DNA of 64,000 bases from Patescibacteria group bacterium (GCA_016861085.1 BOKR01000001.1:668081-732080), one strand, 5' to 3'. Positions 4,931-32,819 are shown, counted from the first letter of the stretch. The notes: generated by a model from the letters alone, not told the origin. Translations and numbers: made by a program.

Positions 4931-6286
4931 TTACAGCTTAATTTTCTTTGGCCGATCTGAAGATACCTTCCAATTATCACACATGCCATTCCAAGTTTGG
5001 GCATCCATGAGCCAGCCGTCATTCGCTTTGCCAACCTCTTCAAGTAATGCGTGCGTTACTTCCATAGCCCGCCTTGGATTCCTTTGTGCATACTCAAGTA
5101 TCCTTGGCACTAAATTCATTTTTTCTGATTGGAATGTTTCCAGCCTCATCCATGTATTACAACTCCTCATTTTCTCGTTTATCATTTGAACAATTAGCTC
5201 ATCATTCCATGCAAATACCCCATCTAAAACCTTTATTCCTGTGTTTTTAGTTTTCACCCTTGCCGGAGAAAAAACCTTTAGATAGACACCAACTTCTTGC
5301 AAACGAGCAATTAGCTTGTGGTCAGTGAGTGCATCAAGTGTTCTTTTTGCCTCTCTATTGTTTTGTATATCTGCTACTAAATATATATTTTGTGCATAAT
5401 CACCAAGTAAATTATGCACAACTTTCACCATTTCTGGTACAGTTTGTATTGCTTTTGCTCTTTTTACAGTACGGTCTACATTTCTTATAAACTGTTTCCT
5501 GTCCCTAAGAGATGGAATCGCACCTTCCTTTCTTGAGACCAGACTTCGAAGTGTCATAAGAATACCTTGCAAAAAAGTTTCTTTTGCTTGTGATCCTACA
5601 TATCTAGATTGTATTCTTTGCGCAATTGGAAATAGTGCTTCTAAACCCTCAGGGTCATCATCTTTCCGTCTATGGTTTACAACTGCTCGTAGCAAATTTT
5701 GCATAGGTTTACCACCAGTCTTCACAACCCTGGCATAATCAACCACAAATTGTGAATGTGCACCTGACATGCTTTTACGATCATAGATAAGGTGAAACCT
5801 TTCTATAAGTTCAACTAATCTACCCATGCTTTGACAAATCATTTGATCTATAGAACCACTCTTTAATAAACTTAAATCAAGAGGAATTACTAAATTGCCC
5901 CCCGACACCAACCTTTCATACATCTCAAACACCATTCCTGAATGTGTTGCCCCTTCTCCTGACTGATAAGGAATAACAGCATGTTCATGTTTTTTTAAGA
6001 GTGAAAATAAATCAGTTCTGTATTTAGAATTTTCTACTACTTCGGTATGGGCCGGACTACCCCCATGATTTTCTTGAAGATACATAAGCAGTTCTTCTGT
6101 CGTAAAATTTCCCAGCATCTCCCTAATTCTGACTTCATCAGGTTTTTCATAGTACCTAACACGCTTATTCTCAGCTTTTACACCAGCTTCATCAGGGTTT
6201 TTTCTGGAGGTTTCTATCCTCTGTGTAAATCTTTGCATAGCATCTTTCTGCCTATTACAGGCCTTTTTTGCGATTATATTCTGCAT
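4931..6286 (-). CDS. Hypothetical protein (451 aa), no recognisable domain. Local GC looks slightly higher than neighbours.
   Basis: Long ORF transcribed divergently from the 6374 gene. No Walker, HTH or catalytic motif recognised. Confidence 0.5.
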   Translation of the reverse strand: MQNIIAKKACNRQKDAMQRFTQRIETSRKNPDEAGVKAENKRVRYYEKPDEVRIREMLGNFTTEELLMYLQENHGGSPAHTEVVENSKYRTDLFSLLKKHEHAVIPYQSGEGATHSGMVFEMYERLVSGGNLVIPLDLSLLKSGSIDQMICQSMGRLVELIERFHLIYDRKSMSGAHSQFVVDYARVVKTGGKPMQNLLRAVVNHRRKDDDPEGLEALFPIAQRIQSRYVGSQAKETFLQGILMTLRSLVSRKEGAIPSLRDRKQFIRNVDRTVKRAKAIQTVPEMVKVVHNLLGDYAQNIYLVADIQNNREAKRTLDALTDHKLIARLQEVGVYLKVFSPARVKTKNTGIKVLDGVFAWNDELIVQMINEKMRSCNTWMRLETFQSEKMNLVPRILEYAQRNPRRAMEVTHALLEEVGKANDGWLMDAQTWNGMCDNWKVSSDRPKKIKL

Positions 6287-6373: not shown

Positions 6374-7579
6374 ATGAAACAAGGACCAAGCATCCACCCT
6401 GAAACAATTGCAAAAATTAGTTCAAGGTGGATCCAAGCAATCAAAGCCCAAGAAAACATACTCTCTGTCTTTCCAAGAGGTGTGGCTGGGTATCGCCGAC
6501 TTGAAAGCCTAATTTCAGATCAAGAACTTCTCAAGAACAACTCAATAAATGTAGAAAAATTTGCTTTCTATTACTACCGAGTTGAACCAACATCTCCAGA
6601 TTTTATTACAACGTTACAAAACCTATTTCAGATTAAAAAGAAAATAGAAAATATTGATCAATGCATCCAAGAAATCAATAAAAAGTACACACAAAATCAA
6701 CAACACATCTTTCTTATTGCTTTTATTGATAGTTGGCTAAACAAGGAAACTACAATTTTACATTTGCTCAGCTTAGTATCAGATAGCTGTCCTCAAATCC
6801 AATTTTTATTGCTCACTGAAGAAAATATACATGACACCGAAAAAATAATTCTGCTTGGAAAATACCATCAGCTCTTTCAAAATATTAGTTACATTCCGCT
6901 CTACTCAAATGAAACGCTCCAATACTTTGTTACTGATTACAGCACCATACTTGAAAAGCCAATCTCAAAAGACCAAGCGCTGAAACTGCTTCAAGTTACA
7001 GGGAAACACATTGCACTGGTAAAAGAGGCTGTGCGATTACACTGTTTGTATGATGTTCCTTTTCAAGAAATTACTCAACAACTGAGCTATAAAATTAAAT
7101 TGAGCCAAATATGGAGTTCTTTTTCAAGAAAGGAACAAACGGTTTTCAACAAAATTTGGAACAACCAAGTACTAGAAACCCAAACTCTAAAAGAAACATA
7201 TATACATTTAAGAGACTTACAATGGTTTGAAGAAACTCCTGAAAAAATACTCTGCTCTGTACCAGGCTTTGAATACTTTATCACTCAAAAAACACCTGTA
7301 AAGCTACTACTACAACTCGGTCATCTCTATATCGGTGATACTATTGCGGATGATAAATTTACACAAAATGAAGCTAAACTTTTAACACTGTTCCTTTCTG
7401 GAACAAAAAATTTATACACAAAAGAGGAACTTTTTGAACAACTGTGGGACAACCCAGAAGAATATTCTGATTGGGCACTTGATAAATCACTCCATCGCCT
7501 GAGAACAAAACTCAATGAATTACAAGTAACTTCCCAAATAGTAACACTCAGGGGTAGGGGGTACTCGTGGCAAGCATAG
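6374..7579 (+). CDS. Uncharacterised protein with a C-terminal OmpR/PhoB-type winged-helix DNA-binding domain and an approx. 300-aa N-terminal domain of unknown type. No P-loop and no canonical receiver aspartates.
   Basis: The C-terminal 70 aa (LTLFLSGTKNLYTKEELFEQLWDNPEEYSDWALDKSLHRLRTKLNELQVTSQIVTLRGRGYSWQA) match the trans_reg_C pattern (…RLRKKL…TVRGVGY…). The N-terminal part is unassigned. Confidence 0.6.
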   Translation: MKQGPSIHPETIAKISSRWIQAIKAQENILSVFPRGVAGYRRLESLISDQELLKNNSINVEKFAFYYYRVEPTSPDFITTLQNLFQIKKKIENIDQCIQEINKKYTQNQQHIFLIAFIDSWLNKETTILHLLSLVSDSCPQIQFLLLTEENIHDTEKIILLGKYHQLFQNISYIPLYSNETLQYFVTDYSTILEKPISKDQALKLLQVTGKHIALVKEAVRLHCLYDVPFQEITQQLSYKIKLSQIWSSFSRKEQTVFNKIWNNQVLETQTLKETYIHLRDLQWFEETPEKILCSVPGFEYFITQKTPVKLLLQLGHLYIGDTIADDKFTQNEAKLLTLFLSGTKNLYTKEELFEQLWDNPEEYSDWALDKSLHRLRTKLNELQVTSQIVTLRGRGYSWQA

Positions 7580-9078
7580 AAAAAAGAACTACACTCTCTG
7601 AATTGTGGAATGCCGCTGATCTCTTACACAGACCAGAGCCACCACAACTTTTGACAAGTCTGTTACTTTCATTCAGAAAAAAAGGACTCATAGACGAAGC
7701 AACGCAATTATTTTTGTTTGATTCGTTGCCCTTGTACTATCTTTTAAAGTCAGATACTGAGTGTCTTAGTTTTTTTGGTGACACTCCAATGATTCCTTTA
7801 TTGGTACAGGCAGGTTTAGCAAGCCATTTTTTTAACACCCCAGAAAATTTGCCAGAAAAACAACAGAAACGTATTGACCAAATAGAATCCTACTTCACCG
7901 TTGGACCAAATGATATTGATCTAAAAATACCTGGTTTAAACAGCTCTAACTGGGAGGCCACGGTAGAATGGTTAACTAATAATTCTCAAAGTATTCAAAA
8001 AACTGAAGCAAAAGAAGAATACCTATGCACTGGCATAGCTATTTGGGATCAAGCACAACAAGTTGAATTTACTGATCGTAAAGTATATGAAAGAAATAAC
8101 TTACTTGAACAATCACCTGAAAAAACAAATGCAGTTCGCGCCACAGTGGTCAAAAATATCGACGGCAATCATGAAACACTTATAGTTATTATTTTAGAAC
8201 TTGGATTTTGTGAACAGAATGCTGTCACTTTAAAAACTTTCAAACCAGTTGCAACAATACATATTTCAAATATTCCGCAACATGACACTCGATTACAAAA
8301 GAATCCAAACTCCACATTGGCTCAAATAACCCCCAAACTGAGTGTACCTGAAACAACTGAAGCAGACTGTACTATAGAATATCCAGAAAACTTTGAAACT
8401 TTACTATTTGAAGAGTTACAATTACTCCTTGATCCGCAAAAACCACTAGAAAGTTTTGTTGCAGCAATTAGTTTTTTTAGAAAAATAAATGTTAAGTTTT
8501 CTTTAGCAAATAAACATATTGAGAGAAGAAGACAAAAATTAGACATCACTGATGCGGAATATGACCTAGTAGTCATAAATCCATTTATTTCTTTTTATTC
8601 ACTTTTTAATACCTTTTTGAATGACCTATCAGAACCAATAAAATTAACCCAAGAATATGATATTGCCCGCTTCTCAAGCGATTTAGCTCTTATTGCAGTT
8701 GCTGTTGGACCAAAAGAATTTAGTAAAGTCCTAATTTCAACAGGATTAGTAAACTATATTGAAAGAAATATTGCAGGCTTTCTAAAACAAGGGATTGAAA
8801 CAAACCCTTTTTGTAAAGGTCTTTTATTTGAAAAGACTCACATAGCCATCAAAAAAAACGAAAATAAAATAAAAGCAAGCTTATTTCCATTCCCAGAGCC
8901 AAATAATTTTGGCAAACAAGAAACACACCCTCTTCCTTGGGATGGTCTGACTGCTCTCATTCAGTTACTCAAGGAGAAAACAGAAATTGAACTTTCACAA
9001 TACCCACTGCTTTGTTTTATCAACCTCTTTTGCGCCCCTTTTTTTGAAGATACTCAAGACCAACAAAACGTTTACTAA
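7567..9078 (+). CDS. Hypothetical protein (503 aa), translationally coupled to the upstream winged-helix gene
   Basis: GTG start at 7567 overlaps the upstream stop (7577-7579) by 13 nt. A G-rich SD-like run (GGGTAGGGGG) lies just upstream. No recognisable domain. Confidence 0.5.
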   Translation: MASIEKRTTLSELWNAADLLHRPEPPQLLTSLLLSFRKKGLIDEATQLFLFDSLPLYYLLKSDTECLSFFGDTPMIPLLVQAGLASHFFNTPENLPEKQQKRIDQIESYFTVGPNDIDLKIPGLNSSNWEATVEWLTNNSQSIQKTEAKEEYLCTGIAIWDQAQQVEFTDRKVYERNNLLEQSPEKTNAVRATVVKNIDGNHETLIVIILELGFCEQNAVTLKTFKPVATIHISNIPQHDTRLQKNPNSTLAQITPKLSVPETTEADCTIEYPENFETLLFEELQLLLDPQKPLESFVAAISFFRKINVKFSLANKHIERRRQKLDITDAEYDLVVINPFISFYSLFNTFLNDLSEPIKLTQEYDIARFSSDLALIAVAVGPKEFSKVLISTGLVNYIERNIAGFLKQGIETNPFCKGLLFEKTHIAIKKNENKIKASLFPFPEPNNFGKQETHPLPWDGLTALIQLLKEKTEIELSQYPLLCFINLFCAPFFEDTQDQQNVY

Positions 9079-15101: not shown

Positions 15102-15302
15102 TTAATTTTCTTCAGGAATTACCAACCAAAGTAAAACGTATGGAATTATTCCTGGTAGACCACCTGGCATGAGAAGCAACACCCAGAGCACCCTAACTAG
15201 GGTGACATCTATATCAAAATAGTTTGCCAGTGCTTGGGCAACTCCACCAATTTTTTTACCTTTTTTTGGTAAGAGTAATCGTTTGTTTTTTAGATTTTTC
15301 AT
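15102..15302 (-). CDS. PspC-domain small membrane protein
   Basis: GGVAQALANYFDIDVTLVRVLWVLLLMPGG…LLWLVIP matches the PspC domain pattern (GVCGGLAxYFGIDPTLVRxxFVLL). Confidence 0.6.
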   Translation of the reverse strand: MKNLKNKRLLLPKKGKKIGGVAQALANYFDIDVTLVRVLWVLLLMPGGLPGIIPYVLLWLVIPEEN

Positions 15303-15311
15303 ATGCTGCTA

Positions 15312-16358
15312 TTATAACCTACGCATCTTCTTACGCAAAAGTTCAAATGCAGCAGTCACTGTATATTTTGCTGAAAGCGGAACATCCTGAGCATGCAAGT
15401 ATTCAACTGGAGTACCACCAAATCCAGTCTTAAACATTGTTACTCCCGCAAAGCGGTGGTTTACTGCACCTTCAGGAGCTATGCCCCAGAAATTATACCG
15501 TAAACAGCCTCTAGCTTTCGCTTCTAAAATCGCTGCCCACTGACATGCATAGCTGCCAGGGAGTTTTGCATTCTCATCAGTTGAAATTCCGTAGTGATAT
15601 ACTGCTTCTTTATTGTAGAAAATAACAAACGCCGAAGCTAATAGCTTTCCTTCATAATATGAGTGAAATAACACTACTTGATCGTCTTGTGCAAATGCTT
15701 TGAATTGCTCATGTAAAAACTCATATGAAAACGGTACAAATCCATGGTGCTTAGCGAGTGCAACTTGGTTATCATAAAAAGCCTTGATTTCTTCAGGATT
15801 ACTGGTCTTTTCAACAATAATTCCCAGACTTTGCGCTTTACGAATTGAAGATCGGTGATTTTTTCTCATTTGAGCAAGTAATGCATCATTAGACAAAGAT
15901 AAATCCAACTGTAACGTTAAATCTGCTGTTAGATGCATTGGTGAAAGGCGCGCCCCTACAACAGAAATAACCTTCTCCTGCAATTCTGGGGTATTCATTT
16001 CCTGGGGGCGAAACCGAATAAAATCTACCTTTTGCTCTTGGGCAGTAATTTTGATTTGCGTAAAAACGTATTCAAATAATTCTTGATTGCTCCAATCCAT
16101 AATTGGACCACCAGCAATCGTAACATAGTTTCCGCGCTTGGCTTTTTCAACAACAAGTTGTGCTAAAGCAACTGGTTTTTCTTGTTCTAAAAACAACAGC
16201 CGTACTACTGTCTTTCCTAAATTATGATGAAATACACCCCAGTTCCATGACTGTAAAAAGTTAGCCTCTGCAAAATGAGCAACAGCATTTTCCCACTGTT
16301 CTTTGGTCGCGTCAGTGATGATAGTTATATTCATACATTCTCCAGTAGTATGGTACAA
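15312..16358 (-). CDS. FemAB-family (FemX-like) aminoacyl-tRNA-dependent peptidyltransferase
   Basis: 348 aa, FemAB-family pattern (FLQSWNWG…, MRKNHRSSIRKA, YNFWGI) without the coiled-coil insert, i.e. FemX-like. Confidence 0.75.
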   Translation of the reverse strand: MYHTTGECMNITIITDATKEQWENAVAHFAEANFLQSWNWGVFHHNLGKTVVRLLFLEQEKPVALAQLVVEKAKRGNYVTIAGGPIMDWSNQELFEYVFTQIKITAQEQKVDFIRFRPQEMNTPELQEKVISVVGARLSPMHLTADLTLQLDLSLSNDALLAQMRKNHRSSIRKAQSLGIIVEKTSNPEEIKAFYDNQVALAKHHGFVPFSYEFLHEQFKAFAQDDQVVLFHSYYEGKLLASAFVIFYNKEAVYHYGISTDENAKLPGSYACQWAAILEAKARGCLRYNFWGIAPEGAVNHRFAGVTMFKTGFGGTPVEYLHAQDVPLSAKYTVTAAFELLRKKMRRL

Positions 16359-17614
16359 ATTTTCTTGGCAATAGCTGGCGTTATTTCTCTGTGAGTTGGG
16401 AGATTTAACACCTGAGTTGCTAAAAGCTCAGCATGAGGGCAACTTTTATTTTGATACATTGTCTTACACTGATAACTACCACAATCAACCGACCAACGAT
16501 ACCAACGATCAGAAACATAGATTCTATTTTTCTTTAAAGCAGCAACTAATTTTTTCACCTGAGTGTCATCTGTACAACGAACACTAAACCGTAAATTACT
16601 TGACCGTTCTAACTCTTCTTTCGTAAACAAAAGTTGAAGTCCACCTTGTTTCAGGCTGCTCTGGCTTAACTGCTCAAAATATATCTGTGCAATCTTTTTT
16701 CGATGCTCTATTTGTTGTTCCAAACCTTTAAACTGCAGTACTGCTAGTTTCGCATACGCTTGATGCATCCAGGTCATTGTGTCTGTTTTACTCTTAATTG
16801 GAGAGCCTAATAACCCGAGTTTTTTTGCCAAAACAAATACCACTTTCCCAAAACCAAAATGGTGTGTTTTACGAATAAAGGAAGTTAGATCTGGGTATAG
16901 TAAATCTTCATATACAATAGAAAATGGCAATTTTCCAACCATTTTCTTCACATCTATCAACCGTTCATTTCGCTCATCATCCATCACTTTGAAAACTACA
17001 GCTCCACCAGAAATTGCATCAATAATCTTGTCTTTACCAAACGAAAAAATTACTGCATCTGCTAGTTCTCCCAGCATCTTACCAGTACTATCAATACCCC
17101 CAATACCCTGGGCTATATCTTCTATCATTAGTAGACCGTGCGTATTACACCACTTTCTGATAGCAACACTATCTGCAGGAATTCCCAGACTATGCTGAAT
17201 TAAAACTGCTTTTGCTTGTGGATACTTTTTGTACGTCTCAGCAATACTCTCAACTGTCAAATTGGTTGAATCTCTTGAGATATCTGCATAGACTGCCTTC
17301 ATTCCAGCTCGCAACATTCCCTCTTCAACTGCATAACAACTAAAAGCTTGTGTAATAATCTCACTACCAGGTTTTAACAAAACTCTACAACAGGCTTCTA
17401 TAGCATCCCTGCCTTTGTACAAGCTGAGAACTTCACCACCATATGTTTGCGCTAAGTGTCTTTCTAGTTTTTTAACGTCAGATTTTCTTGAAAAGAAAAT
17501 ACTCCACAGACTTGTTGAAACGAATTTTAGAGAGTAATTAGAGCCTAAACTATTAAATATTGATTTCATATTATTCAAAGTATTGCTTTGCCCAAGCCGG
17601 CATTCTTCCCTCAA
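16331..17614 (-). CDS. DegT/DnrJ/EryC1/StrS-family PLP-dependent aminotransferase (sugar aminotransferase-like)
   Basis: PLP-lysine region VIFSFGKDKIIDAISGGAVVF (family pattern SFHxxKxxxxGEGG). Overlaps FemAB by 28 nt. An N-terminal extension is present if the first ATG is used. Confidence 0.65.
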   Translation of the reverse strand: MREECRLGQSNTLNNMKSIFNSLGSNYSLKFVSTSLWSIFFSRKSDVKKLERHLAQTYGGEVLSLYKGRDAIEACCRVLLKPGSEIITQAFSCYAVEEGMLRAGMKAVYADISRDSTNLTVESIAETYKKYPQAKAVLIQHSLGIPADSVAIRKWCNTHGLLMIEDIAQGIGGIDSTGKMLGELADAVIFSFGKDKIIDAISGGAVVFKVMDDERNERLIDVKKMVGKLPFSIVYEDLLYPDLTSFIRKTHHFGFGKVVFVLAKKLGLLGSPIKSKTDTMTWMHQAYAKLAVLQFKGLEQQIEHRKKIAQIYFEQLSQSSLKQGGLQLLFTKEELERSSNLRFSVRCTDDTQVKKLVAALKKNRIYVSDRWYRWSVDCGSYQCKTMYQNKSCPHAELLATQVLNLPTHREITPAIAKKICTILLENV

Positions 17615-19067
17615 TAACTATCAAGTCTTCCTTATCTAAAGTTGAAATTATTTCTTGCAATTGTTCCTTTGTAGTCAACAGCTCAGCACCAAAATAGCTT
17701 TGAAACTCTTCTTTTCCAGGCTCACCGACAAAAACGACGACATCAAAAACTTTTTTTGCATCTCTAGCTAATTCTAGATGAATTTCCCTTGAATCTTTAC
17801 CAAGATCAACAATACCTGGGGTCACCAATACCTTTTTATTTGCTTTCAGTGATCTTGCTAGAGTAATCATGGCTGAGAAACCCTTCGGATTACTGGTATC
17901 GCCATCATCAATGATTTTCACACCACTGGCAAGAGCGTAGGTTAAAACAAACTTATCATCAGGAGAGAAAGACTCAAGTGCATCAAGTATTGCAGCAGTA
18001 CCCAGTTTAAAGTGCATCGCTGTTGTAATTACGAGATGAACTAATTCTTTATACTGAACCCCAACAAGTTGTGTTCTAACAGTTTGTCCATTCCAAGAAA
18101 ACTGTAATTTTCCTTCTTGATTGACCCGAGCGTTTTCAATTTGGACAGCATTAAATTCTGGGCCGACAGCAATCAATTTTGCGTCATTTTTAGTATTACC
18201 AGTATCAACTATTTGTCTAGTCTGCTCGTCATAAACATTACAAATAACAGTAGCTTTTTGCGGCAGGCTAGCAACAAGTTCTGCCTTAGCCTTGATAATT
18301 TCCTGAAGACTACCAAACAACCCAACATGCTGTTTTGCCAAACCAGTGATAATTGCCATATCAGGTTTAACCCACTTAGCTAATTCTTTGATTTCACCTT
18401 TTTTGTAAGCTGCATATTCAATAATGGCAATTTCTTCACCGTTATATCCTGATACTACACTCTGAGCTACTGAATATTTAGTATTGTATGATTTTGGTGT
18501 CACAAACACTGAGTATTTTTTGCCAAGCACATGTGCTAACAGTAGCTTTGTAGAGGTCTTTCCGTAGCTACCAGTGATTCCAATAACCGTAGGTTTCTTC
18601 GTATCTAACAGAGCTTTTGCTTGCAATAATTTTTTATATGTTTGCACATATGCCAATACTACAGTAGGCACAGCGCTCAACATAACTAAGAACGGAATAG
18701 TTACTAAATATAATACTAAAAGTAACAAATATGCCGTATATCGATACCACAACGGGTATGGATACCATTGCAATAGGAACTGTGTAATAAATTCCATTCC
18801 ACCCCGAAGAAATAAAAAGGACAACAATGCAAATATAGCCGAAAGCAACAGTGATCTGTGGGTCATTTTTGGTCGTTTTAAACCTGTTTTAGAAAAATCA
18901 GATTTTTTTGGCAAAATTCGCAACAACTCGCGGATGCCCTCACCTGAAAGTAAAAATAATGCAACTCGATCAAATCGATATTCCTTTTGCTGTAAAACAC
19001 CAATCCAACGAAGTGCTCGTACAAAAAAAGAGGCTAATAAAAAAAGTAGTACTAGAGTAGTTTTCAT
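17571..19067 (-). CDS. Mur ligase family protein (MurF-like ATP-binding and C-terminal domains) with an approx. 150-aa N-terminal polytopic membrane region
   Basis: P-loop VIGITGSYGKTSTKLLLAHVL, Mur-ligase central and C-terminal patterns. Residues 1-150 are hydrophobic (3-4 predicted TM). Overlaps the aminotransferase by 44 nt. Confidence 0.75.
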   Translation of the reverse strand: MKTTLVLLFLLASFFVRALRWIGVLQQKEYRFDRVALFLLSGEGIRELLRILPKKSDFSKTGLKRPKMTHRSLLLSAIFALLSFLFLRGGMEFITQFLLQWYPYPLWYRYTAYLLLLVLYLVTIPFLVMLSAVPTVVLAYVQTYKKLLQAKALLDTKKPTVIGITGSYGKTSTKLLLAHVLGKKYSVFVTPKSYNTKYSVAQSVVSGYNGEEIAIIEYAAYKKGEIKELAKWVKPDMAIITGLAKQHVGLFGSLQEIIKAKAELVASLPQKATVICNVYDEQTRQIVDTGNTKNDAKLIAVGPEFNAVQIENARVNQEGKLQFSWNGQTVRTQLVGVQYKELVHLVITTAMHFKLGTAAILDALESFSPDDKFVLTYALASGVKIIDDGDTSNPKGFSAMITLARSLKANKKVLVTPGIVDLGKDSREIHLELARDAKKVFDVVVFVGEPGKEEFQSYFGAELLTTKEQLQEIISTLDKEDLIVIEGRMPAWAKQYFE

Positions 19068-19762
19068 TTCAAAAATGCTCCAATAACTGCAGCTGTTTCT
19101 GCTTGATGTGTAAACTGTGGAGAGTGTCGAGCTCCTTTAACAATATATAGTGTACTGTTTTGTAGTAAAGATTTAAATTGTTTTGCAAATTTTACAGGGG
19201 TAGTCATGTCATGTTCACCCCAAACGATAAGGGTAGGACACAGAATTTGCGGCAAATAATCTAATATTTCAGTGTTGATGACATTTGCCATAGTCTGACG
19301 TTGTGTTTCGTTTGCTTTAAGGTAGTCTTGTTCGCGTGCCAATTTATATAACACGTTCCTAAAAAATTCATGCTTAAAAACTGGTTTTCCAAGCACAGCT
19401 GCTGTTTTAAAAATTGAGCGTTTGAGTACTTTTTTAAATGATCTATCAATCATTCCTGCACTATCTATCAGAATAAGTTTAGTCATTCGTTCTGGATTTT
19501 GAGCCGCGAATTGGCAAGAGATCTGCCCCCCAAAGGAATGACCAAGCAAAATGACAGACTCATTTTTGGGCAACTGACTTTCCAACCAAGAAACATAAGA
19601 ATCAAGTGTCCACACTTCATCTAGTTTTGTAGTTAAACCAGGAATTGGTAAAAATTTGCTTGCTATGCCCTGCTCTTGTAGTAACTCACGAAATGCTTGC
19701 CACTTTTTTTCGTTGGCTTCATCAATCGCCCAGCCATGCAAAATATATACCGTTTGTTTCAT
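19064..19762 (-). CDS. Alpha/beta-fold hydrolase
   Basis: Nucleophile elbow GHSFGG, 232 aa. Stop overlaps the Mur ligase start (4 nt). Confidence 0.7.
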   Translation of the reverse strand: MKQTVYILHGWAIDEANEKKWQAFRELLQEQGIASKFLPIPGLTTKLDEVWTLDSYVSWLESQLPKNESVILLGHSFGGQISCQFAAQNPERMTKLILIDSAGMIDRSFKKVLKRSIFKTAAVLGKPVFKHEFFRNVLYKLAREQDYLKANETQRQTMANVINTEILDYLPQILCPTLIVWGEHDMTTPVKFAKQFKSLLQNSTLYIVKGARHSPQFTHQAETAAVIGAFLK

Positions 19763-19854: not shown

Positions 19855-20520
19855 ATGAAATCACTACACAAACGACTACTCTTTTCAGCTGTTATAATAT
19901 CAACATCAGTACTCTTGTCTGGATGTACTGATCCAGCAAAAAAGGGCTCTCAGGACATCAATTTATCAGATATCAGTGTCTCAAACACAACAAATACTAA
20001 TACAGAAAGGCCAACTACCATGCCAGAAGTTACATATAAGAACCTTGCAGATTTTAAAGAAATTCAAGCCACTCAAGCAGTTTTTGAAACAACCAAAGGC
20101 ACACTTGTCATGGACTTATACCGTGATAAAGTACCGCTTACAACTGCAAACTTCCTTAATTTAATTGATGAAGGCTTTTACGATAATATTGTGTTCCACA
20201 GAGTAATTCCTGGATTTATGGCACAAGTCGGTGATCCATTCACCAAAGATCCAAGTAAACCCGAGTCACAATGGGGCATGGGTGGGCCAACCTACAGAAT
20301 TATGGATGAGTTTGATCCAACCTTAAAACATGATGCTGCTGGTATTCTTTCTATGGCAAATGCCGGACCAAATACTGGAGGAAGTCAAATTTTTATTACA
20401 TACGGCCCACAGCCACATCTTGATGGAAAACATGCTGTCTTTGGCAAATTAGTTGAAGGCATGGATGTTCTGGAATCGATAACTGTTGGTGACAAGATCA
20501 TCAAAGCCTCGTACAGATAG
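19855..20520 (+). CDS. Cyclophilin-type peptidyl-prolyl cis-trans isomerase, lipoprotein (lipobox LSGC)
   Basis: Cyclophilin motifs HRVIPGFMAQVGD and SMANAGPNTGGSQIFIT. Signal peptide with Cys lipobox. Confidence 0.85.
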   Translation: MKSLHKRLLFSAVIISTSVLLSGCTDPAKKGSQDINLSDISVSNTTNTNTERPTTMPEVTYKNLADFKEIQATQAVFETTKGTLVMDLYRDKVPLTTANFLNLIDEGFYDNIVFHRVIPGFMAQVGDPFTKDPSKPESQWGMGGPTYRIMDEFDPTLKHDAAGILSMANAGPNTGGSQIFITYGPQPHLDGKHAVFGKLVEGMDVLESITVGDKIIKASYR

Positions 20521-20523
20521 ACA

Positions 20524-22029
20524 ATGAAAAAAACCATTCTCAGTTTAGTCTGCCTGCTTCTTGTTGGCGTGGTTTTGTTGGGGCTGGTACTTGTAAAAAA
20601 TATCTCTGGTATTAAAGCTTTTTCAAACCAGCTTCGATCACTCACCAAGCAACCACAATCTGATCAAGTTATTTTTGATCTTCGCACACTGCTTGAACTT
20701 AATGTTGTCGTCTCAAAACTCTCAGAAAATAAATTACTGTCTGTATTCCTAAAAAAAGACCAAAAGGAATTATTGGCCCGTTTGCAAACCATATCATCAG
20801 ATGTAGGAAGTGTTTTGTCAGAACTAAGCGACCAAGAACAACGCTGGTTATTTATATTTCAAAACAGTAATGAACTGAGAGCAACCGGTGGGTTTATGGG
20901 TTCATATGCTATTGTTGAAATTAATGAAGGAAAAATTATTTCTATCAACACTGAAGATATTTACGACGCTGATGGCCAATTTAACGGATATTTCGAAGCA
21001 CCATCTGGGGTAAAAGAATATTTAAGTAGTGGTAAAGGTTTACGGCTCCCAGACGCTAACTGGCATATTGATACTGCCAAAAGTGCTGAGCAAATTTTAC
21101 CGTTTTTCGCATGGGGAAATAAACAAAATGTGAAAGGCATTGTCTTTGTGAATCTTGAGTTTGCAAAAAAATTGTTAGAGTTTTTGGGACCAATTGAACT
21201 TACTGATTATAATACCATTGTGACTCAAGATAACCTTGATGAGGTTTTGCGTTCAAGAAGAGATGATTTCTTTCCTGGCAGCACACAAAAAAAACATATG
21301 CTCTCTCAACTTTTAACGCAAGTAAGACTAAAAACAACTTCACTGAATCCTGAACAGCTCATTTTACTATTAGATTTTATTCAAAATGAAATCTCTCAAA
21401 ACAACTTGCAATTTTATTCAAATAATCAGACTATTGATGCAGTTTTTGAAAAAAATAAGATGCGACAAATTGTAAATATTCCGGATAATTCTGAGTTTCT
21501 TTATCTTGTAGAATCAAATGTTGGTATCAACAAGGCGAATAAAGCAGTTTCAAGACAGGTATCTATAACAAAAACTCCAAACCAGAGGACCGTTACAATC
21601 GACTTTACCAATAACAATAAAAGGCCAACAATTTCTAAACTTACACAGATAACTGAGCTAGAAACAACTTCACCGGCAACTCAAGAAGCAAAAATAAATA
21701 ATCACCTTGCATATGTGAATTACCAAAGAGTTGTTGTGCCAAAAAATTGGGAACTTACTTCCGTCTTATTCCAAAACACCACTGTTGAGCCTATAGATCA
21801 AGAACTGTTGATTATTGATGGTGTCGAATTTAAACAAATCGGCTTTTTAGTTGTCATCCCTGAAGAAAAAAATGCTACTGCACAAATTTTATTCAATGTT
21901 CCAGAGAGCCTAGAGCAAATCTATATTCAAAAACAACCAGGACTTCCTGCAACAAACTATGTTCTAGAGTATAATCAGAACCAAGAAACCCACACAATAA
22001 CAAACAACCTACTATTGAAATATCCATAA
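20524..22029 (+). CDS. Hypothetical membrane-anchored extracytoplasmic protein (501 aa). I tentatively recall the [11 protein letters not shown] motif as DUF4012-like.
   Basis: N-terminal TM helix and a large extracytoplasmic domain. Starts 4 nt after the cyclophilin stop. Confidence 0.45.
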
Positions 22030-28636: not shown

Positions 28637-29437
28637 GTGTTCAAAAAATACTATTCAATCTTTCGCTATATGTTTATTAGGACACTGCAATTTCGGGCAG
28701 AGGTTGTTATTTATAGTTTTTTGGACGTTTTACCTTACTTCGTTTTATTTTTTGTTTGGAAAGCAATTTTCAAGCAAGTTGATACTCTTAATAGCTTCAC
28801 CTTAAGTGAAATTGTTAACTACTACCTTCTTGTCATTGTAATCGAACGTCTGAGTGCCACGCACTTTGAAAGTTGGCGCACAGAAGAAATTAGAATGGGC
28901 AAAATTGATTATTTCTTAACCCGACCTTTTTCTTATTTAAGCGAAATTTACTCAAAAGAAGTCAGCTCAAAACTTATTAGCATTCTGTTTTCCATACCTG
29001 TTATTTCAATCTTTTTCATCGCAAATGTTATCATTTATAATATTGACCAATCCAACATAACACTACAAAGCTTGTTGATTTTCCTATTGATGATGCTTGC
29101 TGCTCATACCATTCAATTTTTTATTGCACTTTGGATAGTCCTGTTAGGGTTCTGGATGGAAGGGTCAAGTGGTTTAGAGCACTTTAAATGGATTGTTTTG
29201 ACGCTCTTTAGTGGAGCAATGATACCAATAGAGTTTATGCCAAATTGGCTGAAAACTATCACAAATGTACTCCCCTTCAAGTATGTCTTTTCTGTTCCAA
29301 TTACTGTTCTACAAAACAAATATGCCTTAGGTCTCTATGATTATGTGTATGTAGCTTTTATTCTTTTTGGGATGGCATACATCTCAAAGGTGCTCTGGGA
29401 AAAAGCAAAGTTTAAATATTGTTCAGCAGGTGGATAA
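28637..29437 (+). CDS. ABC-2-type transporter permease, paralogue 1 of 4 (GTG start)
   Basis: 266 aa, 6 TM, C-terminal cytoplasmic tail ending KYCSAGG (conserved among the four paralogues). Confidence 0.55.
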   Translation: MFKKYYSIFRYMFIRTLQFRAEVVIYSFLDVLPYFVLFFVWKAIFKQVDTLNSFTLSEIVNYYLLVIVIERLSATHFESWRTEEIRMGKIDYFLTRPFSYLSEIYSKEVSSKLISILFSIPVISIFFIANVIIYNIDQSNITLQSLLIFLLMMLAAHTIQFFIALWIVLLGFWMEGSSGLEHFKWIVLTLFSGAMIPIEFMPNWLKTITNVLPFKYVFSVPITVLQNKYALGLYDYVYVAFILFGMAYISKVLWEKAKFKYCSAGG

Positions 29438-29440
29438 ATA

Positions 29441-30229
29441 ATGAAAAAATATTGGTTGTTGTTTTTAGCATTTCGAAAAATTCAAATCATGAAATTCTTT
29501 GAGTATCGTGGTGACTTCTTTTTTTGGATGTTCGTTTCTCTCATGTGGACCGCATTTAATTATTTCTATTTTGGACTGATATTCTCACAGGGAAAAGGTA
29601 TTGAGGGATGGAACTATGATCAAATCATGCTACTTATTTCTTTCTACACAATGATAGATGCATTCACATGGTCAATCTTTTGGCCAAACATGAGTGAGTA
29701 CACTCGACAAGTTTTTAACGGTGAATTAAGTAAATATTTGCTTATGCCAGTAAACACCGTGTACCTACTCTTGACTCAACATGCCACATATCACAACATT
29801 TCCCGATTTTTTATCGGTTTATATATTCTTATTCATTCAATACAGAGACTCGCCATCAGTGTTTCTTTGTGGCAAATTTTTTTGGCAACCATAGTGTTTT
29901 GTTTTGGGATATTATTAATTTATAGCTGTTGGTTTCTACTGGCAACAGTTTCTTTCTGGGTTGAGAGACTAGAAAATATTAATGAAATAATGCCACAGTT
30001 TCGATCAGTCTACCAAGTGCCGGTCAAAGTTTTTACAGGAGTTCCTGGATTTGTTTTTAGTTTTTTGTTACCACTTGGGTTAGTCACAACACTTCCAAGC
30101 GAAATCATTTTGGGGACAGGTAGTGTAGTTTTTGTTTTGTATCTAATTGTAAGTAGCATATTGTTTTTCGCCCTATCAGTCTTGTTTTTCAAATTATCAA
30201 TAAAAAAATATTCAAGTGTGGGAGGATAG
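29441..30229 (+). CDS. ABC-2-type transporter permease, paralogue 2 of 4
   Basis: 262 aa, 6 TM, tail KYSSVGG. Confidence 0.55.
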   Translation: MKKYWLLFLAFRKIQIMKFFEYRGDFFFWMFVSLMWTAFNYFYFGLIFSQGKGIEGWNYDQIMLLISFYTMIDAFTWSIFWPNMSEYTRQVFNGELSKYLLMPVNTVYLLLTQHATYHNISRFFIGLYILIHSIQRLAISVSLWQIFLATIVFCFGILLIYSCWFLLATVSFWVERLENINEIMPQFRSVYQVPVKVFTGVPGFVFSFLLPLGLVTTLPSEIILGTGSVVFVLYLIVSSILFFALSVLFFKLSIKKYSSVGG

Positions 30230-30243
30230 GATACAATATTTAT

Positions 30244-31230
30244 ATGAAACAAAGCGTAATATCAGTCAAAAATGTATCAAAGCATTTTAAGGTGTACAAA
30301 AAAGAACCAGGACTCATGGGATCTTTTAAGTCATTATTTATCAGAAAATATGAAACTGTCAAAGCCGTGAATGACGTTTCATTCGAAATCAATGAAGGAG
30401 AAATCATCGGATTCATAGGACAAAATGGGGCTGGTAAAACAACCACACTGAAGATTCTATCAGGCCTACTCTATCCAACTTCTGGAGAGGTTAGTGTTTT
30501 GGGTTTTAACCCATGGGATAGAAAACAGGAATTTCAAAAACAATTTGCCCTAATTATGGGGCAAAAAAACCAACTTTGGTGGGATCTCCCAGCAATAGAG
30601 TCGTTCTTGCTTAACAAAGCCATTTACGAAATTCCAGACAAACAGTTTACCGAGACTTTAGAAAAACTAAGCACTCTTTTAGATGTTAAAGATATATTAC
30701 AAATCCAAGTTAGAAAGCTCTCACTTGGTCAAAGAATGAAATGTGAATTGATTGCTGCTTTACTTCATAATCCAAAAGTACTCTTTCTGGACGAACCTAC
30801 TATTGGTTTAGATGTGGTGATGCAGAAGACACTCAGAGACTTCATCAAAGAATACAATAAGGAATTTGGCGCCACAATCATTTTAACCAGTCACTATATG
30901 GATGACGTTAAAGAATTGTGTGAGCGCGTCATAATTATTGATCATGGTACCAAGATATATGATGGTGAGCTTGATAAAATCATCAAGACATATGCTCGAA
31001 ACAAAACACTTACCATTACGTTTGCTGATGAAGTTTCACATAAAGAGCTTGAGCAATTTGGAACAGTAAAATCAATTTCAGAAAATCAGGCAACTTTGTT
31101 GGTAAAAAGAAGTGACGCCACACAGATTGCATCAAAAATCTTAAATAAATTCAAGGTTACTGACTTAAATATTGAAGAGGCACCAATTGAAGCGATTATT
31201 AGAGAAATCTTTTCGACCAAACGCGAATAA
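30244..31230 (+). CDS. ABC transporter ATP-binding protein (single NBD plus an approx. 90-aa C-terminal domain)
   Basis: Walker A GQNGAGKTTT, signature LSLGQRMKCELIAAL, Walker B LFLDEPTIGLD, H-loop SHYMDD. Confidence 0.85.
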   Translation: MKQSVISVKNVSKHFKVYKKEPGLMGSFKSLFIRKYETVKAVNDVSFEINEGEIIGFIGQNGAGKTTTLKILSGLLYPTSGEVSVLGFNPWDRKQEFQKQFALIMGQKNQLWWDLPAIESFLLNKAIYEIPDKQFTETLEKLSTLLDVKDILQIQVRKLSLGQRMKCELIAALLHNPKVLFLDEPTIGLDVVMQKTLRDFIKEYNKEFGATIILTSHYMDDVKELCERVIIIDHGTKIYDGELDKIIKTYARNKTLTITFADEVSHKELEQFGTVKSISENQATLLVKRSDATQIASKILNKFKVTDLNIEEAPIEAIIREIFSTKRE

Positions 31231-32021
31231 TGCAAAAATATGTGACATTATTGAAATTAAGTTGGCAAAATGGCTTGGTATATAGGACCAGTGTCATTAT
31301 GTGGCGTGTGAGGCAATTCTTAGGTACACTCATGGCATTAACTGTATGGCTTGTCATTTTTCAAGGAAACCCAACAGCATTTCAATATACAAAAGATAGC
31401 ATGATTACGTATATTTTCTTGGTCTCTTTCCTGCAAAGCCTAATTATTTCTACCGCTCTGAATGGTTTAGCCGATCGGGTATATTCTGGTGAAATCAGTA
31501 ATCATTTACTCAAACCCCTCAATTTGTTTGGATACTTTGCAATTGAAGAAATCGCTGATAAAGCAAAAAATATTTTTTTTCTCATACTTGAAACCATCAT
31601 CCTTTTTTTAATTTTTAAACCAATGATTGTTTTTCCAACCACTGGTGTTTTTTTATTATTTTTTGTATGGTCGTGTTTTGGAGTAATCATCAACTTTTTC
31701 ATTACTTTGTTGTTTGGAGCTTTTGGTTTTTGGAGCCCAGATACTTGGGGGCCAAGGTTTTTATTTTTTATGATTCTCAACTTTACAGCCGGAAAATTGT
31801 TCCCTCTTGATATTCTACCTACAGCACTACAAAAAGTTCTCTATGCTACTCCATTTCCATATCTTTCTTTTGTACAAATCCAGTTATTCTTAGGGAGATT
31901 GAACTTGGAAGAGATAGTAAGTCATTTCTTGCTCATGTTATTTTGGATTGGTTTACTAGGAAGTTTCGTCACTTGGTTATGGAAAAAGGGGTTAAAAAAT
32001 TACGAATCGACAGGAAGATAA
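31230..32021 (+). CDS. ABC-2-type transporter permease, paralogue 3 of 4
   Basis: 263 aa, 6 TM, tail NYESTGR. Start overlaps the ATPase stop. Confidence 0.55.
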   Translation: MQKYVTLLKLSWQNGLVYRTSVIMWRVRQFLGTLMALTVWLVIFQGNPTAFQYTKDSMITYIFLVSFLQSLIISTALNGLADRVYSGEISNHLLKPLNLFGYFAIEEIADKAKNIFFLILETIILFLIFKPMIVFPTTGVFLLFFVWSCFGVIINFFITLLFGAFGFWSPDTWGPRFLFFMILNFTAGKLFPLDILPTALQKVLYATPFPYLSFVQIQLFLGRLNLEEIVSHFLLMLFWIGLLGSFVTWLWKKGLKNYESTGR

Positions 32022-32819
32022 ATGGTACAAAGATTAAAAACATACTTCACAATTTGGAGCATTTTTGGCAAAAATGCTCTACAAGAAACCTTTGTTAATC
32101 GGGGATCAAACGCATTATTTATGCTTGGAAAAATCATTCGTCTGGCCATGTCTTTATTGTTCTTGTTTTTAATTCGGCAAAATGTACAAACATTCGCCGA
32201 TTATACAAGTGATCAGCTAGTTGTATTTTTTCTAACCTATCAAATTATTGATTTAGTTGCCCAAGTTGTGTACCGAGGAGTTTATGTTTTCGGCAATATG
32301 GTAAGAAGTGGAGAATTTGACTTTTTACTGGTTAAGCCAATTAATCCATTATTCCGTGCCCTCACAGGAAAACCAGACATTAATGATTTTTTGTTTTTGT
32401 TCCCAAATCTAGCAATAGCTGGATATCTCTTGAGTTTGCTTGATTTGCATATCACTGTTTGGTCATCAGTTTGGTTTATTATTTTACTTGTAAATGCATT
32501 TTTAGTTGTAACAGCGCTTCATATCCTTGTTTTGGTCACAGGAATTTTAACAACTGAAGTTGATGGAGTAATATGGATATACCGGGATTTAAGCTATATG
32601 GGTCGCTTTCCGATTAGTATTTATATGGAACCACTGCGATTTGCGTTGTTTTTTCTAGTTCCAATCGGGATAATGATAACAATACCAACAGAAGTGTTTT
32701 TGGGATTACAGCCAAGTTATAGCCTATTCTGGGTGTTCTTTGTTGGAATTGGCAGTTTATTTTTCAGCTTGAAAGCCTGGAACTGGGCACTGAAAAAGTA
32801 TACAAGTACGGGGAGTTAA
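32022..32819 (+). CDS. ABC-2-type transporter permease, paralogue 4 of 4
   Basis: 265 aa, 6 TM, tail KYTSTGS. Confidence 0.55.
   Translation: MVQRLKTYFTIWSIFGKNALQETFVNRGSNALFMLGKIIRLAMSLLFLFLIRQNVQTFADYTSDQLVVFFLTYQIIDLVAQVVYRGVYVFGNMVRSGEFDFLLVKPINPLFRALTGKPDINDFLFLFPNLAIAGYLLSLLDLHITVWSSVWFIILLVNAFLVVTALHILVLVTGILTTEVDGVIWIYRDLSYMGRFPISIYMEPLRFALFFLVPIGIMITIPTEVFLGLQPSYSLFWVFFVGIGSLFFSLKAWNWALKKYTSTGS

Follow-up and report, generated by a model that had tools for sequence, protein, structure and literature searches.

What does a Mur ligase do when hydrophobic helices stand in place of its substrate-binding domain? The question is raised by a locus on the minus strand of a 64,000-nucleotide stretch of DNA from a Patescibacteria group bacterium (the whole stretch analysed, hereafter the window), where five co-directional open reading frames (ORFs) occupy positions 15102-19762. 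They encode an alpha/beta hydrolase, a Mur ligase, a DegT-like protein, a FemX-like transferase and a small PspC-domain protein (Table 1). A first-pass annotation, made from the sequence alone, had recognized these five genes and their domains, and both the coordinates and the assignments were confirmed by ORF calling and by Pfam and NCBIfam searches. It had raised the possibility of an extra paralogue and suggested an amino-sugar/peptide pathway at the membrane. The sequence comparisons described here favour a different answer, with fair but not high confidence: the ligase would be the Patescibacteria version of a widespread membrane-embedded MurF, finishing the peptidoglycan stem peptide. 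Most likely it catalyses the ordinary final step in building the cell-wall peptide and does not define a new pathway.

The ligase is of the MurF type

The Mur ligase middle domain (PF08245) matched residues 164-336 with 99.9 bits. The match to the C-terminal domain (PF02875) was marginal (30.9 bits, cutoff 28.4); this domain was modelled with high confidence by AlphaFold2 (AF2). The best NCBIfam family was TIGR01143 (murF) with 184 bits, below its cutoff of 288.6, and the models for MurD, MurC and MurE gave 61, 50 and 40 bits. MurF structures led the list when the PDB was searched with a sequence profile (3zl8, E 5e-40; 4cvk; 1gg4) and when it was searched by fold (chains of 4qf5, 3zl8 and 4cvm). 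These results agree with the annotation, which had described a MurF-like ligase with a MurF-like P-loop and C-terminal domain. The ATP and Mg motifs are intact in the MurF-like middle and C-terminal domains, and by its sequence the protein is an intact ATP-dependent ligase of the MurF type. A MurT-like or CapB-like identity was rejected, MurF being clearly the best match in the profile, PDB sequence and fold searches. The protein is identical to BroJett025_06560 of NCBI, which comes from a Patescibacteria metagenome-assembled genome (1.17-Mb contig). Members of the family are named MurF by NCBI and JGI.

The TIGR01143 match spanned positions 65-403 of the 418 positions of the profile, and positions 1-64 were left unmatched, in line with the claim that the N-domain of MurF is lacking. 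This domain, which in soluble MurF holds the uridine diphosphate (UDP) end of the substrate, was absent from every family member tested. TIGR01143 was the top family for all these relatives (227-274 bits); the ~60 initial profile positions, to which nothing aligns, keep their scores slightly below the cutoff.

A conserved membrane module replaces the N-domain

The annotation had described 3-4 hydrophobic helices in the first ~150 amino acids (aa). A hydropathy scan located hydrophobic segments at residues ~3-25, 71-92 and 109-144, all ahead of the P-loop. An AF2 model based on a 76-sequence alignment (predicted local distance difference test, pLDDT, 92.8; predicted template-modelling score, pTM, 0.87) placed helices at 2-27, 70-101 and 106-157, followed by the MurF-like fold; in the N-terminal region the pLDDT was ~77-96. 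The hydrophobic helices are thus retained, but their number is three by both methods, and the predictions support the proposal that the ligase is membrane-embedded. The loop formed by residues 28-69 is basic, with 11 Lys or Arg residues. By the positive-inside rule this loop would be cytoplasmic, with the N-terminus on the outer side of the membrane and the ligase domain within the cell. The rule together with the model would place two conserved motifs (Table 1) at the cytoplasmic membrane face, beside the ligase domain.

Residues Q26-Q27-K28-E29-Y30-R31, R34, R65-P66, R71 and P125 were invariant in alignments of 25 and of 76 homologues, and Q26, Y30, R34, K64, T69, R71 and A150 were invariant across nine Patescibacteria and nine Firmicutes fragments. 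The layout is common to different phyla: a first transmembrane (TM) helix, motif 1 (Q-x-x-x-Y-x-x-x-R), an optional TM hairpin, motif 2 ([KR]-[KRP]-x-x-x-T-x-[KR]) and two further helices. The hairpin is missing from the lineage of the window, whose ligase has three TM helices; hydropathy scans gave ~4-5 hydrophobic segments in most other lineages. The module could be aligned across Patescibacteria, Clostridia, Bacilli, Chloroflexota, Poribacteria and other phyla.

When 1.84 billion representative proteins (clusters defined at 50% identity) were screened with a profile of the module, 1942 clusters matched at E<=1e-3, and 763 of them reached E<=1e-10. In the best 150 of the 1942 matches the module stood at the very N-terminus, and the full-length proteins had 470-560 aa; the shorter matches that were inspected either continued into the ligase P-loop or ended just past the module. 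Its occurrence in other architectures was rejected, no other fused domain being found among the best 150 matches and the inspected short proteins. Identity with a known domain was rejected as well, a Pfam search at E up to 10 yielding a single match of 17 bits at chance level. Judged by its conservation, the N-terminal region would be more than an anchor and appears to constitute a functional module. It is probably substrate-binding, because it replaces exactly the substrate domain of MurF and carries invariant Tyr, Arg and Lys residues.

Distribution of the family

At least 120 homologues of the window ligase (457-514 aa, 39-68% identity) were found at 94-100% query coverage. GTDB, represented by one genome per species, was scanned with the two most conserved peptide patterns. 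More than 600 stretches matched and the best 80 loci were kept; in each fetched locus (designated by L numbers) ORFs were called and searched with the window proteins. Most of the ligase ORFs in these loci have 470-600 aa and carry the P-loop GITGSYGKT at residues ~150-250. In most family ligases it is preceded by 3-5 hydrophobic segments, and its GSYGK form (pattern G[IV][TG]GSYGK[TS][ST]) is a signature of the membrane ligase family. Beyond Patescibacteria, loci were obtained from Poribacteria, Clostridia, Bacilli, Chloroflexota and Thermoleophilia, and also from Omnitrophota, Verrucomicrobia, Cyanobacteria, Methylomirabilota and Mycoplasmatota. The idea that the trio of hydrolase, ligase and Ddl genes (see below) is a mobile or plasmid element was rejected: among 72,556 plasmids there was no match with at least 80% query coverage, and only ordinary murF genes were hit.

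Some Patescibacteria ligases are short (400-457 aa; L063:9698-10900, L011:9962-11335 and L052:9356-10621), with the membrane module reduced or undetectable. The L063 ligase (Azambacteria) has ddl as its neighbour on the other strand and lacks the DegT/FemAB pair. A MurF-like protein of 425 aa, with a middle domain beginning at residue 29, is also entered in an annotation table of a Saccharibacterium (PMC10633639, supplement).

Orthologues of the ligase in the place of murF

The genomic position of the ligase was compared in the fetched loci. In six Poribacteria loci the order was FtsI-MurE-hydrolase-ligase-Ddl-MraY, continued in five of them by MurD-FtsW-MurG-MurC (order checked by Pfam for L013); the hydrolase was directly upstream of the ligase in four of the six and not in the other two. 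The membrane ligase occupies the murF slot there, with no other MurF nearby and with no ddlB at its usual place. In Patescibacteria the genes often lie within the division and cell-wall (dcw) cluster, near FtsI, MraY, MurD, FtsW, MurG and FtsQ. Examples are a Saccharibacteria locus (L080; MraY-x-MurD-FtsW-MurG-PGA_cap-LysRS-SerRS-hydrolase-ligase-DegT-FemAB-FtsQ) and a Woesebacteria locus (L015; hydrolase-ligase-DegT-FemAB-MraY-FtsW-MurG). The PGA_cap gene of the former (CapA-like, PF09587; L080:5078-6055) lies between murG and lysS.

The view of the ligase as an extra paralogue with its own amino-sugar/peptide pathway was not supported by these observations. The ddl-linked ligases of ~50 loci outside Patescibacteria belong to the same family and have the same N-terminal module and hydrolase partner, the Poribacteria ligases stand in the murF slot and the Saccharibacteria and Woesebacteria ligases within dcw, and a 10-kb search around the ligase revealed no further MurF-like gene at any of these loci. 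The annotation had also considered that the ligase might be the sole murF of the genome, with an anchor typical of the lineage and with unrelated neighbours. This comes near to the present result, except that the anchor appears to be a functional module and that the neighbours are not unrelated. One K01929 murF per genome is listed for ABY1 Patescibacteria (PMC11809585, Table S6), which is circumstantial support.

In the lineage of the window the four-gene core of hydrolase, ligase, DegT and FemAB genes is found at a different, conserved site in seven independent genomes (36-47% ligase identity). The window cassette is located between PPIase/DUF4012 and SBP_bac_5/SecG/RNase Y genes, neither in a dcw cluster nor beside ddl. 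DUF4012 lies upstream on the opposite strand in six of the seven genomes, in four of them with a cyclophilin gene in between, and SBP_bac_5, SecG and RNase Y lie downstream in five. In the window the DUF4012 membrane protein is encoded at 20524-22029 (+) and the cyclophilin at 19855-20520 (+). The synteny of DUF4012 and the cassette persists where the outer flanks differ (L006).

In two cultured Bacillaceae the trio of hydrolase, ligase and Ddl genes is isolated from dcw: Evansella cellulosilytica DSM 2522 (CP002394.1; L087:9228-12788) and Salicibibacter cibarius (CP054705.1; L088:9223-12834), both with unrelated surroundings. Both have a 404-aa Ddl. These strains offer a possible experimental handle on the membrane MurF family.

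The upstream hydrolase is a near-universal partner

Of 84 loci, 69 have a hydrolase homologue as the gene immediately preceding the ligase on its strand, and 73 have one nearby. In 56 of 77 loci a start codon in the ligase frame lay at most 20 nt from the hydrolase stop. The catalytic triad consists of Ser76 (19535-19537), Asp185 (19208-19210) and His213 (19124-19126), all on the minus strand. Among 79 partner hydrolases the oxyanion motif HGW, H-S-x-G-G, D185, H213 and D146-Y147 were conserved at 94-100%, and the nucleophile elbow H75-S76-F-G-G with D185 and H213 at 97-100%. The nearest solved structures are carboxylesterases. From its sequence the protein would be an active serine hydrolase, probably an esterase, and a near-universal partner of the ligase.

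Two kinds of downstream genes

The gene 3' of the ligase was either ddl (54 loci) or DegT-like followed by FemAB-like (23 loci), never both. The ddl loci are nearly all from outside Patescibacteria, and the other 23 are all Patescibacteria by name or gene content; none of the latter has ddl within 10 kb. The downstream Ddl proteins pass the NCBIfam Ddl cutoff (323-351 bits, cutoff 262). Those linked to a membrane MurF are long (403-410 aa; L013:11271-12503, L016:1649-2860, L087:11574-12788), compared with ~320-365 aa for ordinary Ddl; in L013 the extra length is a ~40-residue insertion in the C-terminal half.

The order hydrolase-ligase-DegT-FemAB was kept in 22-23 Patescibacteria loci from several classes, so the functional link between neighbours and the conserved neighbourhood that the annotation had assumed are borne out for these four genes. 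The DegT-like protein matched PF01041 with 146 bits, and its nearest PDB relatives are nucleotide-sugar aminotransferases, first of all QdtB (3frk). Its Schiff-base lysine K181 (17027-17029) and D151 were conserved in all of 118 homologues, and in a Saccharibacteria orthologue the catalytic lysine was aligned with that of QdtB. Only 200 homologues reached E<=1e-10, and those with a named source all belong to Patescibacteria. Of the best 120 DegT-like matches, 36 share a contig-length fingerprint with the best 120 ligase matches. No sugar dehydratase, which could supply a keto-sugar, and no glycosyltransferase is conserved beside the cassette.

The FemX-like protein, whose gene is the second downstream of the ligase in 20 loci, matched PF02388 with 126.9 bits (cutoff 24) and also PF13480. 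It is a short form without the coiled-coil arm of FemA. Its best NCBIfam model was that of FemX, UDP-MurNAc-pentapeptide-lysine alanyltransferase (NF047883), with 65.3 bits, well short of the cutoff of 500. PDB matches were FemA, FemX and tRNA-dependent peptide synthases.

Aminoacyl-tRNA synthetase genes are found next to some of the cassettes. In ~8-9 Patescibacteria loci the hydrolase gene is closely preceded by a seryl-tRNA synthetase (SerRS) homologue, and a class II synthetase lies a few genes further upstream in these; in L080 the latter is a confirmed lysyl-tRNA synthetase (LysRS). There, LysRS (612 bits, above the NCBIfam cutoff) and SerRS stand immediately upstream of the cassette, inside dcw (L080:6089-8819). 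Homologous synthetase genes are similarly placed in L012, L020, L023, L024, L028, L040 and L052, at about the place after ftsI that murE would normally take; apart from L080, Pfam confirmation was obtained for the L012 SerRS only. No murE was seen within 10 kb in the synthetase-bearing loci. The LysRS and SerRS neighbours fit a tRNA-dependent step. In L006, a relative with 44% ligase identity, a 624-aa class II synthetase (tRNA-synt_2 and OB domains) fused to a YbaK-type tRNA_edit domain is encoded two genes beyond the cassette (17584-19458). The presence of the DegT/FemX pair in the dcw cluster of Patescibacteria points to a cell-wall feature not yet recognised.

The fifth gene fared differently. 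The PspC protein matched PF04024 with 73.5 bits (cutoff 25) and is encoded in the same direction as the cassette, but none of the 86 related loci contained a homologue; the gene occurs in the window only. It was rejected as a cassette member, contrary to its inclusion in the functional unit by the annotation.

Gene junctions and other features of the window

The annotation had reported overlaps of 4-44 nt between the genes. The hydrolase stop and the ligase start overlap by 4 nt (ATGA) as read from the sequence, and the DegT and FemAB genes overlap by 4 nt (also ATGA) if the ATG at 16334 (MNITII) is the FemAB start. The 44-nt overlap of ligase and DegT, on the other hand, is obtained only with an upstream TTG (DegT ORF 16331-17614): the ATG at 17569 begins 1 nt past the ligase stop, in line with the 1-nt gap at this junction in relatives. 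The FemAB ORF as first called was 15312-16358. Between FemAB and PspC there is a 9-nt gap and no overlap.

A consensus scan found promoter- and terminator-like sites no more often than in shuffled sequence. A single transcript, as proposed, agrees with the tight packing and is deduced from it only, since the signal scan was uninformative.

Table 1. Features of the cassette in the window
Feature	Position	Strand	Assigned by
Abhydrolase_1 alpha/beta-hydrolase, 232 aa	19064..19762	-	PF00561
MurF-like membrane ligase, 498 aa	17571..19067	-	Mur_ligase_M and Mur_ligase_C (Pfam); TIGR01143
N-terminal membrane module (predicted), residues 1-157	18597..19067	-	hydropathy, AF2, conservation
Motif 1 QQKEYRFDR, residues 26-34	18966..18992	-	alignments
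Motif 2 KRPKMTHR, residues 64-71	18855..18878	-	alignments
ATP-binding P-loop GITGSYGKTSTK, residues 163-174	18546..18581	-	sequence, family pattern
DegT_DnrJ_EryC1 PLP (pyridoxal phosphate) aminotransferase-like protein, 412 aa from ATG 17569	16331..17569	-	PF01041
FemX-like aminoacyl-tRNA-dependent transferase, 340 aa from ATG 16334	15312..16334	-	PF02388, PF13480
PspC-domain small membrane protein, 66 aa	15102..15302	-	PF04024

The window contains no tRNA gene and no Rfam match. Elsewhere in it, a compact five-gene row (28637-32819, +) consists of an ABC ATPase gene flanked by four genes for ABC-2 permeases (PF06182), each of ~265 aa; so many permease paralogues alongside one ATPase are unusual. 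Two ORFs have no Pfam match (4931-6286, -, 451 aa; 7567-9078, +, 503 aa); the ORF between them (6374-7579) has a C-terminal Trans_reg_C DNA-binding domain only.

Proposed role of the ligase and alternative explanations

If the ligase is a membrane-embedded MurF, its N-terminal module would tether it beside MraY and supply a binding site for the (pyro)phosphate-sugar end of MurNAc-tripeptide, to which the catalytic domains would add the C-terminal dipeptide. The product of MurF is UDP-MurNAc-pentapeptide, and the FemX of Weissella acts on its soluble form; the FemX-like enzyme may add a branch amino acid from aminoacyl-tRNA onto the ligase product. As a partner, the alpha/beta hydrolase would be obligatory and catalytically active, probably as an esterase; the DegT-like PLP enzyme would be a Patescibacteria-specific addition and PspC a lineage-specific passenger.

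Several observations speak against this assignment. No member of the family is more divergent than the window ligase, with its 184 bits. The Ddl-linked members retain the MurF signatures QHLE.F and DD[AS][YF]N[SA]NP, whereas the Patescibacteria ligases linked to DegT/FemAB have, with one exception, lost the Glu of HLE (QHL[GSA][LT]F). Most of the latter keep DD/DS-[ST]-Y-[NS]-[AS]-NP and the canonical MurF-like ELG..S...H. Only the order to which the window belongs goes further (DDGGT[ST]NP.GF, EY[AG]AY, IVDLG), the DD[ST]YN[AS]NP of MurF becoming DDGGT[ST]NP and EMGA becoming EY[AG]AY. The amine specificity of the ligase could have drifted in the Patescibacteria lineage, although nothing shows such a drift. 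No ddl, murE, mraY or other peptidoglycan gene is present within the 64-kb window, a second, soluble murF may conceivably exist elsewhere in the source genome, and the Bacillaceae trio outside dcw could be accessory. Finally, loss of the UDP-binding domain would equally be expected if the carrier of the substrate had changed.

This last point leads to the alternative that survives best, the lipid-linked acceptor suggested by the annotation, which agrees with all the observations though we consider it rather improbable: MraY would first transfer phospho-MurNAc-tripeptide to undecaprenyl phosphate, and the membrane ligase would then add the dipeptide at the membrane, its basic motifs binding the lipid pyrophosphate instead of UDP. 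The missing UDP-binding N-domain in every member and the invariant Arg, Lys and Tyr in loops predicted at the cytoplasmic membrane face are what such an enzyme would be expected to have. A precedent exists in MurT, which without an N-domain acts on lipid II, and which is a weaker PDB match. The same motifs, however, could equally bind UDP, with Tyr on uracil and Arg/Lys on the diphosphate. Moreover, the co-encoded FemX-like enzyme resembles the type acting on soluble UDP-MurNAc-pentapeptide, and the ligase stays before mraY, as ordinary MurF does. This alternative concerns the carrier only, and the enzyme would remain the MurF of the organism.

It is unlikely, in our judgement, that in Patescibacteria the DegT-like and FemAB-like enzymes make the amine for the ligase with the help of aminoacyl-tRNA, replacing Ddl, so that the peptide has no Ddl-made D-Ala-D-Ala end. 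The strict alternation of ddl with DegT plus FemAB, the absence of ddl within 10 kb of every DegT/FemAB locus, the SerRS and LysRS homologues upstream of the cassette and the lost HLE Glu all speak for such a replacement. To our knowledge no DegT-family enzyme acts on amino acids, which counts against it. So does the chemistry of FemAB enzymes, which gives an L-amino acid or Gly at the N-terminus and not a D,D-dipeptide. The alternation tracks phylogeny and amounts to one split, not to repeated swaps, so that it says little about equivalence of function, and most Patescibacteria members retain the MurF C-terminal-domain signatures. The PDB does hold a FemAB-fold enzyme making peptides from aminoacyl-tRNA (9wqy). 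Ddl Pfam domains are missing from the Saccharibacterium annotation table (PMC10633639, supplement), and a ddl row from the cell-wall table of ABY1 genomes (PMC11809585); yet ddl may lie elsewhere, or D-Ala-D-Ala may be scavenged. A combination of the two alternatives also has a low probability. The last stem-peptide step would then take place on undecaprenyl-PP-MurNAc-tripeptide after MraY, with the Patescibacteria amine coming from DegT/FemAB and from tRNA supplied by LysRS and SerRS. If true, the synthesis of peptidoglycan precursors would be rewired here and would include a conserved esterase step.

It is very unlikely that the cassette makes a separate, non-peptidoglycan glycopolymer, in which DegT would form an amino sugar, FemAB would aminoacylate it and the ligase would extend it, a soluble MurF being encoded elsewhere. 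The DegT protein is named polysaccharide biosynthesis protein by NCBI and has nucleotide-sugar aminotransferases as its nearest solved relatives, the top model for one FemAB homologue from Patescibacteria is that of the PEP-CTERM exopolysaccharide-associated FemAB, and the window cassette is away from any dcw gene. But orthologous cassettes stand in dcw clusters at the position of murF, the sugar dehydratase or glycosyltransferase that would be needed is not conserved beside them, no locus shows a second MurF, and beyond Patescibacteria the partner of the ligase is ddl. A misplaced start, with an ordinary or truncated MurF as the real protein, had been named by the annotation as a possible refutation; some ORFs of relatives are indeed shorter (L011, L052, L063), but this start-codon artefact can practically be dismissed, since more than 100 homologues match over almost the full length with invariant positions in the N-terminal 150 residues, this region is conserved across phyla as well, the ligase ATG overlaps the hydrolase stop and AF2 models the N-terminal region with good confidence.

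Comparison with known systems

The family shares with MurF (TIGR01143; 3zl8, 4qf5, 4cvm, 1gg4) the middle and C-terminal domains, the P-loop, the Mg/ATP motifs and the fold, and its orthologues share the murF slot of dcw or the ddl neighbour. It differs in that the soluble N-domain (profile positions 1 to ~60) is replaced by a module of 3-5 helices with motifs of its own, in its alpha/beta-hydrolase partner and in its scores of 184-274 bits against the cutoff of 288.6.

MurT (6gs2, 7q8e) is likewise a homologue of Mur ligases without the N-terminal substrate domain, and its precursor is membrane-bound. Unlike the membrane ligase it is soluble, has a C-terminal DUF1727 domain and GatD as partner, and catalyses amidation of the peptide instead of its extension. 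Its PDB match to the window ligase had E ~1e-10 as against 5e-40 for MurF; the window ligase gave no DUF1727 match, and no GatD/CobQ-like neighbour was present at the window or at the loci of relatives. PgsB/CapB, also an amide ligase associated with the membrane, has an ATP domain like that of Mur ligases and a single N-terminal anchor, and forms a polymer with PgsC and PgsA as partners. It belongs to a different subfamily, absent among the NCBIfam matches listed for the family ligases.

The enzymes that make and add the dipeptide are coupled in a similar way in the ddl-murF operons of Bacilli and in Mur chimeras, but here the order is hydrolase-murF-ddl and the MurF is an integral membrane protein. 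A study of the natural chimeras MurE-MurF and MurC-Ddl mentions neither transmembrane forms nor a hydrolase (PMC10214165). The FemX of Weissella viridescens (1ne9, 4ii9), with ~335 aa, is close in size to the window protein and both have the FemAB fold without the coiled-coil arm; it is the best NCBIfam match, yet the window protein reaches ~65 of the required 500 bits. With QdtB (3frk), PseC and ArnB the window DegT protein has in common the PLP fold, the Schiff-base lysine and the aspartate. It differs from them in being restricted to Patescibacteria, in an insertion of ~50 residues and in a divergent C-terminal half. Its subfamily is always encoded between the membrane MurF and FemX, with no conserved dehydratase neighbour.

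No account of a transmembrane MurF, of its hydrolase partner or of the Patescibacteria cassette was found in open-access full text, so the family and its esterase-like partner are apparently undescribed in that literature. Members of the family, scoring just below the MurF cutoff, are often annotated as hypothetical or as 'Mur ligase family protein', and recognition of the family, if the assignment is true, would aid cell-wall annotation in the reduced genomes of Patescibacteria. The esterase-type partner would add an unrecognised step or a quality control to a much-studied pathway that is an antibiotic target. In the textbook pathway MurC to MurF are soluble cytoplasmic enzymes, and the membrane is met only at MraY. 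An integral-membrane MurF in ~1900 clusters, from cultured Bacillaceae, Clostridia, Chloroflexota, Poribacteria and much of Patescibacteria, would change this picture of how the substrate is handed over from MurF to MraY.

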